Part shown: in pieces, positions 27,725 to 32,967 of the stretch
Numbering within the stretch: position 1 is the first letter of the stretch
Layout of the letters: every line of letters starts with the position of its first letter
Assembly (NCBI RefSeq): GCF_041686455.1
Contig: NZ_JAWLDW010000004.1
Location: 64 to 64,063, forward strand
Length of the DNA stretch: 64,000 nucleotides
Direction of reading: 5' to 3'
From: Rhodohalobacter sp.
GTDB lineage: Bacteria; Bacteroidota; Rhodothermia; Balneolales; Balneolaceae
Position numbers and translations under genes: made by a program
Notes under the pieces: model-generated
The model's database searches: none
What the model saw: the letters and a program-made list of their open reading frames with translations, nothing else
What the model was told of the DNA's origin: nothing

Positions 27725-28009
27725 TTAAGGCTCCAAGTTCGCAATTGTAGCACCCCAGCCGCCACCTGATCCATCTGCAATCTGGTACCCGGTTACGTGT
27801 GGATTACGTTCGAGCAGAGCGTGGACACTTCTCCTGACATTACCAATTCCCTTACCGTGGATAAACCGCACCTGGTAGATCTCCTCTTCAAGGCAGGCAT
27901 TAATGTACTCATCAATCAGTGTGGAGAGGTCTTCCGGCGCAAAGTAGTGGAGGTCCAATACACCGTTGATGGGAATTTCATGTGGTTCATCAGTATCCAT
28001 AGATGTCAA
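27725..28009 (-). CDS. small stand-alone Smr domain protein
   Basis: LDLH, RFIHGKGIG, GGGWGAT. Confidence 0.9.
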   Translation of the reverse strand: MTSMDTDEPHEIPINGVLDLHYFAPEDLSTLIDEYINACLEEEIYQVRFIHGKGIGNVRRSVHALLERNPHVTGYQIADGSGGGWGATIANLEP

Positions 28010-28012
28010 AAA

Positions 28013-28876
28013 TCAAACGGATGAGTGTTTATAAAATCTTTGCCCTTCAATAATAAGCTGTCGCTTCAATTCAATCTGAGATTTTTTTAAGTGATGAATC
28101 AATCGATTTACAGGTTTTGGCTTCAGATTCAGTGAGTGCAGCCAATGGATAAAGTTATTCAAATCCTGATCTTTTCCGAGTGTTTCACAGATCCGTTCTA
28201 CATCCGGTTCGGATATATTTATACGGGTTTGTTGAGATCGCAAAAGAGCCAATTGATATTGAACATCTTTCAGCCGCTTCCGCCATTCATGAAATGGTCC
28301 TGAGAGTTCGGATGCTACAGCTTGTTTAAACGCCTGGTGACTTTTCCGGAATGAAATTTTAAAACCTTCTAAAATACATTCAGTATCAAATGTGTTTGAA
28401 TTGATGAATGTTTTTAAAGACGAGTGACTGCTAATCTGAAGTTCAAGATTTTTAAAGATTTCATCTTTAACTACCAATTGATTTTCCAGCTGGTCAACTT
28501 GAGAACTGGCAATTTCTTTTATCTTGTGAAGTACTCTGGTGTCTACATTTTTAGAATATTCAGGTGTGATGTCTTCAATAAACATTCTGTAAACATGAAT
28601 ATCCCTCAGCTCTGATAAGGACTGCCCCCAACTTTTGAATGTGACGTTAAGCTTGTTTGAATGGTCTGGATTCCCGCACTTTTTAAGCAATTTTAAAAAC
28701 GCCCGAAGTAACTTCAGGCGTTTTCGGGTAAGATGAGTGGATTCCACGATATCTCTATCGTGAAGCTGAACTGAGCGTAGCAGCTCAGTTTTCAATAAAT
28801 CAGCTATAGTTAAAAGCTTATCATTGAGATGATCATCCAGTGAAATCTCAGGTATAATAAATGAAGGTTGCTCCAA
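28013..28876 (-). CDS. CHAD domain protein (polyphosphate-binding family)
   Basis: HLTRKRLKLLRA, LSELRDIHV, FHEWRKRLKDVQYQL, LGKDQDL. TTG start at 28876 chosen to avoid overlap with the Dabb gene. Confidence 0.8.
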   Translation of the reverse strand: MEQPSFIIPEISLDDHLNDKLLTIADLLKTELLRSVQLHDRDIVESTHLTRKRLKLLRAFLKLLKKCGNPDHSNKLNVTFKSWGQSLSELRDIHVYRMFIEDITPEYSKNVDTRVLHKIKEIASSQVDQLENQLVVKDEIFKNLELQISSHSSLKTFINSNTFDTECILEGFKISFRKSHQAFKQAVASELSGPFHEWRKRLKDVQYQLALLRSQQTRINISEPDVERICETLGKDQDLNNFIHWLHSLNLKPKPVNRLIHHLKKSQIELKRQLIIEGQRFYKHSSV

Positions 28877-28889
28877 AATCTTACTTAAT

Positions 28890-29201
28890 TTATAAATCAA
28901 CCTTATAGTCGACCGTATATCGGCTTTCAGCAACCTGTTTTATAAACTCTACAGCTTTTTTATGGTGTGCATTTCTGGTATACATTTGAAAATCCAGATC
29001 TGTTTCAAAATCACAAATTAGAACTACATCAAGTGCATCCGGGTCGTCCTGGTTAATCTGTATACCTACTTCAACATCTTTTATTTCTTCAATGTTGGTT
29101 CGAAGGCCTTCCAGAATGAGTTTCATCTTTTCGGCATTCTTCTCTTTGGTAGCGCCTGCGGCTTCATCTTGTAGTTTCCACATTACTATATGACGTATCA
29201 T
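28890..29201 (-). CDS. Dabb (stress-responsive alpha/beta barrel) protein
   Basis: MIRHIVMWKL, D.VL..DF, Y..NAHH, VDY. Confidence 0.9.
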   Translation of the reverse strand: MIRHIVMWKLQDEAAGATKEKNAEKMKLILEGLRTNIEEIKDVEVGIQINQDDPDALDVVLICDFETDLDFQMYTRNAHHKKAVEFIKQVAESRYTVDYKVDL

Positions 29202-29234: not shown

Positions 29235-30533
29235 TTATCTCGTTTTTGCAAAAGTGAGATCTGCTTGATCAACGCTTGAAGCTGCGAGATCGAGCATTTC
29301 CGGTGAGAAGACCCCTACAGCCCAGAGGAAATATTTAGCCTCTTCCGGGTTGTTGGTTTTGGTCCATTGATATACGGCGAGGTATCCCTCTGCAACCTGT
29401 TCGAGCTCTGATTCCGAAAGGTTATCGGGATCAGAAATTACCGGTACAGTCAGGTCAGCTGAAACCGGAATGATATTTGGGCTGTCAATTTGATCAAGGT
29501 TTAGCCCATATATCATAGGCCATAGATAGGGATCCCCCAAATCAGTTTCTGAAATACTCCAGAGTGACTCACCTGAATCTACTGTATGAATCTCGGTTTC
29601 AGCCTGAGGTGCGGTCTCAGTCTCAGCCTCTGAGGCCGGAGGCTCAGTTTCTTCATTAGTTTCATTGAGCTCAGGGGCTGGTGTTACAGGTGCTGTTATC
29701 TGCTCTGGTTCAGATGTCAGCTGAGGAGTGTCATTACCAATATATTGCCTGGAGACAAGGAAGATGATAAAAATAGCCAAAGCGACGATTACGGCCGCCG
29801 CAGCGTAGGTCCAGTTAATCTTTTCTGAATCCTGAGCGCGCTTTGCCATTCTGGTTTTTTTACCTGCATTTAAAGCGGGCATATTTTGATCGGCCGGTAA
29901 TTTTGGCTGAACAGCATTTGGCTCATCACTGCTTTTAGAACCTTTATCACTGCCTGTACCCACAGGAAAAGGATCAAACTTTTCTTGGTCTGGCTTGACC
30001 TCTTCATTATCATCCTGTTTTGAAGATTGCTCCGTCTTTTTCTCTTCATCGGAATCTTCGGCAGATTTGAGCTCAGACTTACCTTTTACAGGATTGGGGC
30101 GCTCTATCAAGAAGTCGTTGCCATCATCCGCTTCAGCTGAGGAAACGCCGACCGTTTTCTGAGTATTTTCTTCGAGATCATCAGATTTTTTGTCCGACGA
30201 ATCTTTTGGCGATTCATCCAGAATCTGAGGCTCCATTTTAGAATATGGACGATTCACATCTTCGCGGAGTGCTTTGTAAGGCTTGAAGACAACTTTGTTC
30301 TGACCCGGAATGGTAATTTCTTCACCCGTTTGTGGGTTTACTCCGGGGCGCTCATTCATCCAGCGTAGTTCAAATTTTCCAAAACCTGAAATACTTACAG
30401 ATCCGCTTTTCCTCAGTCCGGACTCGATAATATTAACGAGTTCACCGATAAAACTGTTTGTGGAGGCCTGGCTCTGTTTTGATTGCTCAGCGATGAGATC
30501 AACCAGCTCACTAAAAGTAATTTTTTCACTCAT
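29235..30533 (-). CDS. HU/IHF domain - acidic linker - single TM - LysM domain fusion protein
   Basis: N-term VSISGFGKFELR...R.GVNPQTGEEITIP...VVFKP; TM WTYAAAAVIVALAIFIIFLVS; LysM HTVDSGESLWSISETDLGDPYLWPMIYGLN...PNII. ATG at 30533 overlaps the upstream HU by 8 nt. Confidence 0.85.
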   Translation of the reverse strand: MSEKITFSELVDLIAEQSKQSQASTNSFIGELVNIIESGLRKSGSVSISGFGKFELRWMNERPGVNPQTGEEITIPGQNKVVFKPYKALREDVNRPYSKMEPQILDESPKDSSDKKSDDLEENTQKTVGVSSAEADDGNDFLIERPNPVKGKSELKSAEDSDEEKKTEQSSKQDDNEEVKPDQEKFDPFPVGTGSDKGSKSSDEPNAVQPKLPADQNMPALNAGKKTRMAKRAQDSEKINWTYAAAAVIVALAIFIIFLVSRQYIGNDTPQLTSEPEQITAPVTPAPELNETNEETEPPASEAETETAPQAETEIHTVDSGESLWSISETDLGDPYLWPMIYGLNLDQIDSPNIIPVSADLTVPVISDPDNLSESELEQVAEGYLAVYQWTKTNNPEEAKYFLWAVGVFSPEMLDLAASSVDQADLTFAKTR

Positions 30534-30819
30534 CTTCTTTTCCCACAAACTTTAGTTCATCTTTTAGAACAGATGAGGGGCTAAATTCAACAACCCGCTT
30601 TGGAGGAATGAGCATATACTTTTTATAGTGGGGACTGTATACTTTTTGAACTTCTTTCACTTTACAACCAAATGTTCCCAAGTCAGGAATTGTCACGCCG
30701 TTACCACGGGCAAGCTGACTGGAAAGTACGGAGATAGCATCTTCTAAAAGCTCTTTGGTTTGAGCTTTTGACTTGCCGGAAGAATCGGCGAGTTGGTCTA
30801 TGAGTTCACGGTAAGTCAT
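30526..30819 (-). CDS. HU family DNA-binding protein
   Basis: MTYRELIDQLA, VTIPDLGTF, IPPKRVVEFSPS..LK. Confidence 0.88.
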   Translation of the reverse strand: MTYRELIDQLADSSGKSKAQTKELLEDAISVLSSQLARGNGVTIPDLGTFGCKVKEVQKVYSPHYKKYMLIPPKRVVEFSPSSVLKDELKFVGKEDE

Positions 30820-31008
30820 AACTGCAGATGATCAGTTTATTCAATAAACGAAAAAATTGCCGAAAATTCCTAACAAACTCAGAAAATGGAAGTTAACAGC
30901 ATTTTATAGATTTCCAGTAAAAAAATAAAGCCATAACAATATCACTTTGAACGATATTTTATATGATAACCTTATACTATTCAAAAGGTTAATAAAAAAG
31001 TACTCTTT

Positions 31009-32967
31009 ATGTCTGAAGCACTGAATGTTACCCAAAAGCTGATAGAATCACACTTGGTTGAAGGACAATTAAAACCTGGGGCGGAGATTGGTATAAAAAT
31101 TGATCAAACACTAACGCAGGACGCAACCGGTACACTTGTGATGCTGGAGTTGGAAGCTATGGGGCTGGACAGGGCTAAAACGGAAATTTCTTGTCAGTAT
31201 GTAGATCATAATCTTCTTCAAACTGATAATAAAAATCCGGATGATCATGTGTTCTTAAAATCTGCGGCTGATAAATTTGGAATCTGGTACTCTCGGCCGG
31301 GTAACGGAGTGAGTCATCCGGTACATACTGAACATTTCGCTACACCCGGCCAGACACTTGCAGGGTCTGATAGCCATACACCTGCATCGGGCTGTATGGG
31401 AATGTTTGCCTTGGGAGCAGGTGGGCTTGACGTAGCTTTTGCTATCGCTGGAGAACCGATGTATTTAAAGATGCCAAAAGTGCTTGGTGTGGAATTGAAA
31501 GGGAAATTACCCGATTGGGTCAGTGCCAAGGATCTCGTGCTCGAAATGTTGAGAAGATACGATGTGAAAGGAGCCCGGGGCTACGTTATTGAATACTTTG
31601 GTGAAGGCTTAAAAGAGCTTAGTACAATGGATCGGCATGTGATTGCCAACATGGGTACTGAAATGGGTGCTACAACTACGGTTTTCCCTTCTGATGATGA
31701 AGTACGCCGTTTCATGAAGCAAAATGATCGCGAGGATCAGTGGAGCGAATTGAAAGCAGATGAAGGAGCGTCTTACGATGATTATGAGGAATTGATTATG
31801 GACGAACTGGAACCAATGATTGCCCTTCCAAGCAGTCCGGGTAATGTCGTACCTGTTTCAGAAGTTGAAGGTAAGCCGATCTATCAATCGTACATCGGTT
31901 CGTCTGCAAATCCGGGATACAGGGATTTTTGGATAACTTCAGAAATTGTAAAAGATCAGCGCATCCATGATGATGTAAGTTTAGACGTTAATCCAACATC
32001 ACGACAGATAATCGAGAATATGGTTAAGACCGGGGTGATGCTTCATTTGGTGCAGTCAGGTGCACGAATACACCAGGCGGGATGCAACGGCTGTATTGGA
32101 ATGGGACAGGCGCCAGCGAGCGGTCAGAATAGTTTAAGAACGGTTCCGCGTAACTTTCCGGATCGATCGGGTACTAAAGAAGACTCCGTTTTTCTGGTAA
32201 GTCCTGAAACGGCAACTGCTTCTGCATTGACCGGCGAAATCACGGATCCGCGACGGCTTGAAGAGCTGTTTGATATCAAGTGGCCAAAGTACAGCGACCC
32301 TGAAGATTACATTATCAATAAAGACATGCTCCTGGCACCCTCAGAAAACGGAAAAGAGAAAGAGCTTAAAAAAGGACCGAATATCTCAACAATGCCCGAC
32401 TTTGAAGAGCTCTCCGATTTTGAAGTTCCGGTGCTCTTAAAAATGGGAGATGATATTTCGACAGATGGTATCCTGAAGGCAGGTGCAGAGGTATTGCCTT
32501 TCAGAAGCAATATCCCTGAAATCAGTAAATTTTCGTTTACAGTTATAGATGAATCATTTTATGACCGGGCCATTGAGGCAAATGAAGAATATGAAGGGCA
32601 TGTAGTTATTGCGGGTGAGAACTATGCACAAGGTTCAAGCCGTGAACATGCAGCAATTGCTCCAAGATATTTAGGGCAGCGTGCTGTTATTGCCAAAAGT
32701 TACGCCCGCATAGGGTGGCAAAATCTGGCCAATTTTGGTATTGCTCCTCTCGAATTTATCGATGATGATGACTACGAGTCAATCGATCAGGGAGATATTC
32801 TAAAAGTTGAGGATATCAGGCAGCAGCTAAAATCCGGAGAAAAAATAACGGTTAAGAACGTTACGAAAGACAGTGAATTTACCGTACGACATACATTGAG
32901 CGGGCGGCAGTTAAAATCGCTGTTGGACGGTGGAGTAATTAATACTTTTAAAAAAGAAAAGGCTTAA
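31009..32967 (+). CDS. acn: aconitate hydratase (compact, about 650 aa type)
   Basis: QDATG, DHN, GSDSHT, GSSANP, GCNGCIG, RNF, DISTD, GSSREHA, SYARI. Confidence 0.9.
   Translation: MSEALNVTQKLIESHLVEGQLKPGAEIGIKIDQTLTQDATGTLVMLELEAMGLDRAKTEISCQYVDHNLLQTDNKNPDDHVFLKSAADKFGIWYSRPGNGVSHPVHTEHFATPGQTLAGSDSHTPASGCMGMFALGAGGLDVAFAIAGEPMYLKMPKVLGVELKGKLPDWVSAKDLVLEMLRRYDVKGARGYVIEYFGEGLKELSTMDRHVIANMGTEMGATTTVFPSDDEVRRFMKQNDREDQWSELKADEGASYDDYEELIMDELEPMIALPSSPGNVVPVSEVEGKPIYQSYIGSSANPGYRDFWITSEIVKDQRIHDDVSLDVNPTSRQIIENMVKTGVMLHLVQSGARIHQAGCNGCIGMGQAPASGQNSLRTVPRNFPDRSGTKEDSVFLVSPETATASALTGEITDPRRLEELFDIKWPKYSDPEDYIINKDMLLAPSENGKEKELKKGPNISTMPDFEELSDFEVPVLLKMGDDISTDGILKAGAEVLPFRSNIPEISKFSFTVIDESFYDRAIEANEEYEGHVVIAGENYAQGSSREHAAIAPRYLGQRAVIAKSYARIGWQNLANFGIAPLEFIDDDDYESIDQGDILKVEDIRQQLKSGEKITVKNVTKDSEFTVRHTLSGRQLKSLLDGGVINTFKKEKA

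Follow-up and report, generated by a model that had tools for sequence, protein, structure and literature searches.

A free HU protein and a membrane-anchored HU-LysM fusion in Rhodohalobacter: a candidate nucleoid-to-wall tether resembling the predicted HU-CCDC81 systems

We analysed a stretch of 64,000 nucleotides (nt) from Rhodohalobacter sp. (contig NZ_JAWLDW010000004.1; hereafter the window, in whose positions all coordinates are given unless stated otherwise). Two overlapping genes, both read on the minus strand, encode a free HU/IHF-like protein of 97 amino acids (aa) and a 432-aa bitopic fusion that consists of an HU domain, a linker, a transmembrane (TM) helix, a spacer, a LysM domain and a four-helix domain. 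We favour, with moderate confidence, the view that the pair is a membrane-anchored HU/IHF-type module in which the two HU chains would form a heterodimer on DNA, the LysM domain would hold the complex on the cell wall, and the whole would tether the nucleoid to the wall. An earlier sequence-only reading of this DNA had arrived at the same interpretation, which is not new. It is nearly identical to the proposal of Burroughs, Kaur, Zhang and Aravind (2017, Cell Cycle 16:1093, PMC5499826), who described Bacteroidetes-Chlorobi “HU-CCDC81” proteins with a disordered segment, a TM helix and an extracellular FtsN/SPOR or LysM domain. Forms with a single HU were reported there to share an operon of two genes with a stand-alone HU, and the authors proposed a heterodimer and anchoring of the nucleoid to the envelope, with Noc and RacA-DivIVA cited as functional parallels. 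That work, a computational prediction only, bears out the statement in the sequence-only reading that similar fusions had been predicted computationally in bacteria of the Fibrobacterota-Chlorobiota-Bacteroidota (FCB) group. The present discovery is incremental: architecture and hypothesis are already published, and the pair is a well-preserved additional example. New here are the full Pro-tipped arms on both HUs, a split SPOR-type pair in the same genome, sequence motifs that connect the pair with the two HU domains of the tandem-HU proteins of Bacteroidia, and a relative built on DUF1508.

The free HU gene (Pfam PF00216) occupies 30819..30526 and the fusion gene 30533..29235, with an ATG at 30533 and the stop codon at 29235-29237. 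The start of the fusion and the stop of the free HU share the 8-nt sequence ATGAGTGA (30533..30526, minus strand), a stop/start overlap implying that the two genes would be translationally coupled. Family comparisons were made over 24 related loci (L010-L033), and the junction of the pair was judged in the 23 Balneolaceae loci that have the upstream region. The free HU is exactly 97 aa long in all 23, and the overlap ATGAGTGA recurs in all 23, once as ATGAGTAA. The position of the ATG and the N-terminus MSEKITF are conserved in 23/23 loci as well, and we therefore take the ATG at 30533 as the true start of the fusion; an alternative TTG start five codons further 5', which would give a protein of 437 aa, was rejected. 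The open reading frames at 30819..30526 and 30533..29235 confirm the two genes and the 8-nt overlap that the sequence-only reading had reported. The domain order that it gave for the fusion (HU, acidic linker, one TM helix, Pro/Glu/Thr-rich spacer, LysM) is supported by Pfam, by charge and hydropathy profiles, by phmmer and by AlphaFold2.

Both HU domains are recognized by the classical family model. PF00216 (cut-off 22.4 bits) matches aa 7-94 of the fusion with 84.2 bits (E = 7.6e-24) and the free HU with 67.9 bits (E = 9.3e-19). The best NCBIfam match for both is IHF-alpha, at scores below its cut-off (63.6 bits for the fusion and 43.4 bits for the free HU versus 111 bits), and the fusion falls short of both IHF equivalogs, NF001401 (63.6 versus 111 bits) and NF001222 (51.2 versus 115 bits). 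The models for the HU-CCDC81 domains, PF18174 and PF18175 (HU-CCDC81_bac_1 and HU-CCDC81_bac_2), do not reach their cut-offs in either protein: the fusion scores 16.5 bits against PF18175 (cut-off 35), and the free HU scores 17.4 bits against PF18174 (cut-off 26) and 17.1 bits against PF18175. By Pfam thresholds the LysM-type pair is classical HU and not HU-CCDC81. Alignment to Escherichia coli HU and IHF revealed no deletion in the arm of either domain. The proline at the tip of the arm is kept in 24/24 loci in both proteins, within NPQTG in the anchored HU and within Y.P[HT] in the free HU (YSPH here), and the anchored arm is near-invariant (ELRWMNERxGxNPQTGEEITIPGQNK).

The anchored HU/IHF domain, delimited by the PF00216 match and its full Pro-tipped arm, spans aa 1-95 (30249..30533, minus strand). 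It runs into a short post-HU motif, VNRPYSKMEPQ (aa 93-103, 30225..30257; consensus N-x-x-[YF]-x-x-[LMIV]-x-[PSAT]), and then into an acidic linker of ~130 aa (aa 96-225, 29859..30248), which is predicted to be disordered and cytoplasmic. The linker is of low complexity, holds 18 K+R and 32 D+E residues (net charge -14) and was modelled in the fusion with a predicted local distance difference test (pLDDT) of 41-53. In relatives its length ranges from ~70 to 135 aa across the 24 loci and reaches ~275 aa in cluster representatives. An alignment of 55 sequences exposed one conserved island within it, DFLIERPNP (aa 140-148, 30090..30116), with an invariant P148 and an E144 conserved to at least 90%; the motif expression matches 44 of the 55 sequences, and the island is missing from more distant members. 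We consider it a candidate short linear motif for docking a partner.

The sole hydrophobic window of the fusion lies at aa 241-262 (Kyte-Doolittle peak 2.8). Hydropathy and the structural model agree on a basic juxtamembrane helix (aa 226-240) followed by a single TM helix (aa 241-262; together 29748..29858, minus strand), with helices modelled at aa 226-235 and 241-263. The 15 residues N-terminal to the TM helix include five K+R and the 15 residues C-terminal to it none, and the N-flank is richer in K+R than the C-flank in 24/24 family members. No N-terminal signal sequence was found in the fusion. Because the K/R bias lies on the HU side of a single TM helix and there is no signal peptide, the positive-inside bias predicts an N-in/C-out orientation, with the HU and the linker in the cytoplasm and the LysM in the periplasm. 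The topology of the sequence-only reading, with the HU inside and the LysM beyond the inner membrane, agrees with this prediction in all 24 members. Beyond the TM helix lies a Pro/Glu/Thr-rich and predictedly periplasmic spacer of ~50 aa (aa 263-312, 29598..29747), which was delimited by composition, contains 11 E, 9 T and 8 P but no K or R, and has low pLDDT.

The segment aa 313-365 (29439..29597, minus strand) was assigned to the TsaP/YgaU(Kbp) subtype of LysM with phmmer, AlphaFold2 and Foldseek. A phmmer search against PDB sequences returned the LysM of the type IV pilus protein TsaP (3jc8, E = 2e-6) followed by other LysM chains, and the NCBIfam model PRK11198 (YgaU-type LysM) gave 23.8 bits. 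The AlphaFold2 model of aa 296-432, built from 55 family sequences, had a mean pLDDT of 91 and a predicted template modelling score (pTM) of 0.82. It contains a beta-alpha-alpha-beta fold at aa 313-364, with strands at aa 313-317 and 360-364 and helices at aa 324-332 and 335-344 (pLDDT 95-98). In Foldseek searches of PDB and BFVD the best matches were all LysM, with root-mean-square deviations (rmsd) of 1.3-2 Å over 54-63 columns (Kbp, 7pvc: 1.7 Å over 63 columns); the E-values were modest (>0.001) because the domain is small. Together, the TsaP match, the modelled fold and the LysM-only structural matches settle the identity of the domain: as modelled, it is a real but divergent LysM, for which peptidoglycan binding is predicted. 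The sequence-only reading was right about this LysM. What it had called a short helical tail is instead a conserved four-helix domain (aa 374-431, 29238..29438; helices at aa 374-394, 396-409, 411-420 and 423-431), which was modelled with the LysM as one unit (pLDDT 95-98, pTM 0.82). Its mean identity exceeds that of the LysM (61% versus 53%), and its invariant residues in the 55-sequence alignment include Y384, Y388, W390, F402, L403, W404 and F428. Foldseek found no structural match for this domain in PDB or BFVD (ferritin-like bundles, probability ≤0.06).

We compared the conservation of the different parts of the system. Within the fusion, conservation is highest in the anchored HU domain, at a mean pairwise identity of 82%. 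The four-helix domain (61%), the free HU (60%), the TM helix (55%) and the LysM (53%) take intermediate values, and the cytoplasmic linker (27%) and the periplasmic spacer (26%) are the least conserved. The closest relatives bear the annotation “HU family DNA-binding protein” and are assigned to Rhodohalobacter or Balneolaceae; the Joint Genome Institute adds “YgaU”. An exhaustive search with the LysM and the tail retrieved 250 cluster representatives at E ≤ 1e-10, and a PF00216 HU domain was present in 77 of the 86 representatives scanned. Outside Balneolaceae, the LysM-plus-tail combination was not detected in 201 genomes of the class (single-sequence search) or in 301 genomes of the phylum (profile search). 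Six LysM-only matches from other families were examined; five are secreted coiled-coil LysM proteins and one is a 560-aa secreted LysM protein, and no HU domain was found in any of the six. In two distant relatives from metagenomes (L084 and L085), the free HU lies directly upstream of the anchored gene, with overlaps of 1 nt and 4 nt, and one of the two clusters with an Ignavibacteriaceae-labelled member. In a phylogenetic tree, the anchored (LysM-fused) HUs group together with a support of 94 and the free HUs with a support of 95, and both clades include the distant members. Because the two clades and the adjacent free HU extend to these distant relatives, the sequences indicate that the HU pair is an old two-gene unit, co-inherited in Balneolaceae and in more distant lineages. 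Within the LysM family no one-chain fusion of both HUs was found; members of 517-570 aa have longer linkers and start with MSEK[IV]TF.

The same LysM/four-helix ectodomain also occurs with another cytoplasmic fold. In a metagenome-assembled genome (MAG) of Candidatus Marinimicrobia (GCA_016783665.1; L087, 3001..4288), it is attached to a DUF1508 (YegP-like) domain through a linker and a TM helix, and a free 60-aa DUF1508 gene starts 10 nt after the anchored DUF1508 gene. Judged from its sequence, this locus repeats the layout of the HU pair, an anchored domain plus a free copy.

Six HU-fold genes were counted in the genome. Besides the pair described above, they comprise a canonical HU, an IHF-like gene and a second pair, which a search of the genome located on another contig (C41, locus L007, 5061..1457, minus strand, outside the window). 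The canonical HU (94 aa, 106 bits) and the IHF-like protein (109 aa, adjoining ruvX and def) are encoded on contigs C136 and C172 (loci L008 and L009). The second pair is of SPOR type. Its free HU has 69 aa, is without helix 1 and overlaps the start of a 476-aa protein by 11 nt; the latter consists of a truncated armless HU, a hyper-acidic linker, a TM helix and a SPOR domain. ExbB, ExbD and TonB-like genes directly follow this pair, and a 589-aa gene without Pfam match, possibly a candidate outer-membrane protein, precedes it. Like tandem domain 2 of the Bacteroidia proteins, the SPOR-type anchored HU lacks ~20 residues of the DNA-embracing arm. When the genome was searched with PF18175, the SPOR-type gene was selected and the LysM-type gene was not, because the SPOR-type HU is armless whereas the LysM-type HUs keep full arms. 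The split SPOR arrangement, with a free HU of 65-68 aa upstream, is also present in Rhodothermales and in other Balneolaceae: Bacteroidia encode HU1-HU2-TM-SPOR as a single chain, and Rhodothermia split it into a free HU and an anchored HU. These split forms are an exception to the statement of Burroughs et al. (PMC5499826) that SPOR versions always have two N-terminal HU domains.

Two motifs connect the LysM-type pair with these proteins. The post-HU motif is present in 23/24 LysM-type loci, in 54/76 cluster representatives and in 6/6 SPOR-type anchored HUs; it was found in 0/6 canonical HU/IHF proteins and in none of the free partners. In the free HU, strand beta3 starts with P[PKRE][KR][RKST], mostly PPKR, in 24/24 loci, and “PP[KR]” at this strand is common to the LysM-type free HU, the SPOR-type free HUs and tandem domain 1 (HU1). 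These shared motifs suggest kinship with the HU-CCDC81 lineage and speak for a possible common descent of the LysM-type pair with HU-CCDC81 domains 1 and 2. Among the bacterial HU-CCDC81-type tethers predicted in PMC5499826, we take the LysM-type pair to be a little-derived form.

From a gene-fusion argument we infer that the free and the anchored HU would act as one dimer. The rationale is that the order of the genes, free then anchored, equals the order of the domains in the fused chains, HU1 then HU2, and the shared motifs extend the argument to the LysM-type pair. The translational coupling of the genes and the repetition of the layout by the Marinimicrobia DUF1508 pair lend the heterodimer further indirect support. 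As a monomer, the anchored HU domain was modelled with HU-like secondary structure at a pLDDT of only 45-74, versus 95-98 for the ectodomain; this poor model weakly fits an obligate intertwined dimer.

In the mechanism that we propose, the fusion would insert N-in/C-out, with the HU toward the cytoplasm and the LysM toward the periplasm, where the LysM would hold it on peptidoglycan, reached via the extended spacer of ~50 residues. Translational coupling would yield roughly equal amounts of the free and the anchored HU, and these would form an IHF-like heterodimer to which the free subunit would contribute a basic Pro-tipped arm and the anchored subunit its near-invariant, neutral Pro-tipped arm. 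This asymmetric dimer would bind and bend chromosomal DNA. The flexible acidic linker would serve as a leash, and the resulting link of DNA, membrane and wall would probably position or segregate the nucleoid. The armless SPOR-type pair of the same genome may play an equivalent role at the septum through protein contacts. Our confidence falls along the series from the N-in/C-out orientation to the binding of LysM to peptidoglycan, the heterodimer, the binding and bending of DNA and, last, the positioning or segregation of the nucleoid.

Several points count against a tether of this kind. The arm of the anchored HU has a net charge of 0 (median of 24 loci), as compared with +4 to +6 in E. coli HU/IHF and in the genome's own HU, and the anchored HU domain has an isoelectric point (pI) of 6.3; for these reasons it is doubtful that the anchored subunit binds DNA strongly and non-specifically. 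The charge objection is weakened, and is less than decisive, because the host is probably halophilic with generally acidic proteins and even its canonical HU has a pI of just 8.0. In the free HU, the arm has a net charge of +5 here and of 0 to +6 across the family. The dimer would thus likely be asymmetric in that a basic arm is paired with a neutral arm under strong constraint. Such asymmetry fits DNA binding via the free subunit, and it would also be compatible with a specific DNA structure or a protein partner. A maximum-likelihood tree of 103 columns leaves the deep nodes between LysM-type, SPOR-type and canonical HUs unresolved, and homodimers of each HU are possible. On the periplasmic side, the Pfam LysM model PF01476 stays below its threshold of 20.9 bits in the fusion, where it covers just the first 13 residues with 15 bits; among 86 diverse relatives, 28 match the model at E ≤ 0.001. 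The four-helix domain, better conserved than the LysM, could be the actual periplasmic effector. Our literature searches found no experimental test of an HU-TM-LysM tether for any member, in agreement with what the sequence-only reading had said, and the term HU-CCDC81 was found in PMC5499826 only.

The charge of the anchored subunit is also the starting point of a rival view that we rate as unlikely, in which the HU pair does not bind DNA and is a protein-docking scaffold. The pair would then offer a protein-protein contact surface, for instance to a factor in division or partition, and the protein would be a landmark like HubP or FimV. An anchored arm without net positive charge, on a domain of pI 6.3, suits such a role, as do the conserved linker island DFLIERPNP and the armless SPOR-type paralogue in the same genome, and protein binding is what PMC5499826 proposes for the two-HU (CCDC81-type) forms. 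It is difficult to reconcile with the full-length arms of the LysM-type HUs, which keep the intercalating proline in 24/24 loci, and with the basic arm of the free partner (+5). The classical HU model moreover scores 84 and 68 bits on the two domains, whereas the HU-CCDC81 models score poorly.

HU proteins often homodimerise, and the genome already has six HU-fold genes. The two products could on that account be independent nucleoid proteins that share an operon, each HU being homodimeric, the free HU an ordinary extra nucleoid-associated protein, and only the anchored homodimers touching the membrane. We find this marginally less credible than the docking scaffold. The free HU keeps its fixed length of 97 aa and the stop/start overlap in 23/23 loci, an overlap also seen in distant lineages, and the one-chain fused relatives, the parallel DUF1508 case and the separate, co-inherited clades of free and anchored HUs all favour partners over mere neighbours.

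A membrane-bound regulator of the ToxR/CadC kind has a further, slightly smaller claim to plausibility. In such a regulator the LysM and four-helix domains would sense muropeptides or the state of the wall, and the HU dimer would act at a few specific sites. The predicted topology, with the DNA-binding part inside, one TM helix and a ligand domain outside, is like that of bitopic one-component regulators. The near-invariant, uncharged anchored arm suits a specific target more than bulk DNA, and the four-helix domain shows higher conservation than the LysM. HU/IHF folds, however, are architectural and not activators bearing a winged helix-turn-helix, and no OmpR winged-helix domain of the ToxR/CadC type was found in the fusion, where HU was the only cytoplasmic Pfam domain detected. 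A disordered linker whose length varies several-fold (~70 to ~275 aa) suits a leash better than signal transmission, and the obligate free partner and the tandem-HU relatives indicate a structural dimer. Finally, DNABII proteins are found in extracellular DNA (eDNA) matrices, but an HU outside the cell on biofilm eDNA, with the LysM inside or also outside, is highly improbable and was rejected on topology: there is no signal peptide, the TM helix at aa 241-262 has its K/R on the HU side in 24/24 members, and a LysM would have no substrate in the cytoplasm.

We compared the pair, read as a nucleoid-to-wall tether, with known and predicted systems. It resembles the HU-CCDC81 proteins of Burroughs et al. 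(2017) in architecture, predicted topology, the operonic free HU, the proposed heterodimer and the proposed tether. It differs in that both HUs score as classical PF00216 and keep Pro-tipped arms, whereas HU-CCDC81_bac_2 is armless; in that the anchored HU exceeds the free HU in conservation (82% versus 60%) and is closer to the canonical form, whereas PMC5499826 calls the stand-alone partner classical; and in that a conserved four-helix domain follows the LysM. Like E. coli IHF alpha/beta (IhfA/IhfB), the pair consists of two HU-fold subunits that have diverged and both bear a Pro-tipped beta-arm, but IHF is soluble, its genes are unlinked, and neither subunit has a TM helix or a wall-binding domain. 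HubP of Vibrio, FimV of Pseudomonas and TsaP share with the fusion a periplasmic LysM, a single TM helix and an extended acidic part in the cytoplasm, and the LysM of TsaP is the closest solved sequence to the one described here (E = 2e-6). In these proteins the LysM is N-terminal and not C-terminal, there is no DNA-binding domain, and DNA is contacted indirectly; HubP uses ParA1 to connect the origin of the chromosome with the pole. Noc of Bacillus subtilis and RacA-DivIVA likewise bring chromosomal DNA to the envelope. Noc belongs to the ParB family and carries an amphipathic helix, and the binding partner of RacA is DivIVA; unlike the fusion, the two proteins are not integral to the membrane, do not bind the wall and have no HU fold. 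FtsN, DamX and DedD, which are relevant to the SPOR-type paralogue, are bitopic N-in/C-out proteins in which a disordered spacer in the periplasm leads to a peptidoglycan-binding domain at the C-terminus. On the cytoplasmic side they have short peptides without an HU fold, and their wall domain is SPOR where that of the fusion is LysM.

How the nucleoid is positioned or segregated relative to the envelope is poorly known beyond model organisms, above all in the FCB group. One chain that joined DNA, inner membrane and peptidoglycan would be, if the tether is real, the most direct such link known. The Balneolaceae pair is a good experimental entry: both HUs look competent to bind DNA, each subunit can be removed alone because the two are separate genes, the periplasmic domain is modelled with very high confidence, and the armless SPOR-type pair offers a built-in comparison. 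The pair also bears on the origin of eukaryotic CCDC81. A broader reading, which we put forward tentatively and hold to be doubtful, takes the LysM/four-helix unit as a portable trans-envelope anchor whose cargo is in every case a small dimerising cytoplasmic domain, completed by a free neighbouring copy. The HU pair would then represent a little-derived DNA-binding stage that preceded loss of the arm, tandem fusion and transfer to eukaryotes as CCDC81, and cells of the family would possess two parallel tethers. If so, the anchor would carry HU in Balneolaceae and distant relatives (one of them Ignavibacteria-like) and DUF1508 in Marinimicrobia. The LysM-type pair would grip DNA at the wall, the armless SPOR-type pair, beside ExbB/ExbD/TonB, would act at the septum, and the neutral, invariant arm together with the linker motif would give specificity for a locus or a partner.

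The surroundings of the pair are conserved within the family. Upstream, the intergenic region 30820..31008 is the presumed promoter region of the operon (minus strand), with two weak sigma-70-like matches at 30992..30956, and an aconitase-like gene (31009..32967, plus strand) is divergent from the free HU gene. Downstream of the pair, Pfam identified three further minus-strand genes, which encode Dabb (stress-responsive alpha/beta barrel; 29201..28890), CHAD (polyphosphate-granule-associated domain; 28933..28013, start uncertain) and Smr (small MutS-related nuclease; 28009..27725). No terminator-like site was found on the minus strand from 30819 to 27725, a span of five genes, and Dabb, CHAD and Smr are possibly co-transcribed with the HU pair. 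Dabb is present in 24/24 of the related loci, Smr in 17 and CHAD in 14, where some loci end early downstream. In the distant relatives L084 and L085 the neighbours differ. We did not adopt Dabb-CHAD-Smr as a functional part of the core system, the synteny being specific to Balneolaceae and absent from the distant relatives.

Two further observations concern loci in other genomes. A MAG contig labelled Chitinophagaceae (LKNA01000026.1, L012) carries the aconitase-like gene, HU, HU-TM-LysM, Dabb, CHAD and Smr collinear with the window at 59-98% protein identity, and the MAG is probably a mislabelled member of Balneolaceae. In five loci from other Bacteroidota families (L089-L093), the same LysM subtype terminates a secreted coiled-coil protein of 231-269 aa, and in 5/5 of them a lipoprotein-like coiled-coil gene of ~90-125 aa precedes the LysM gene, a recurrent periplasmic pair unrelated to HU.

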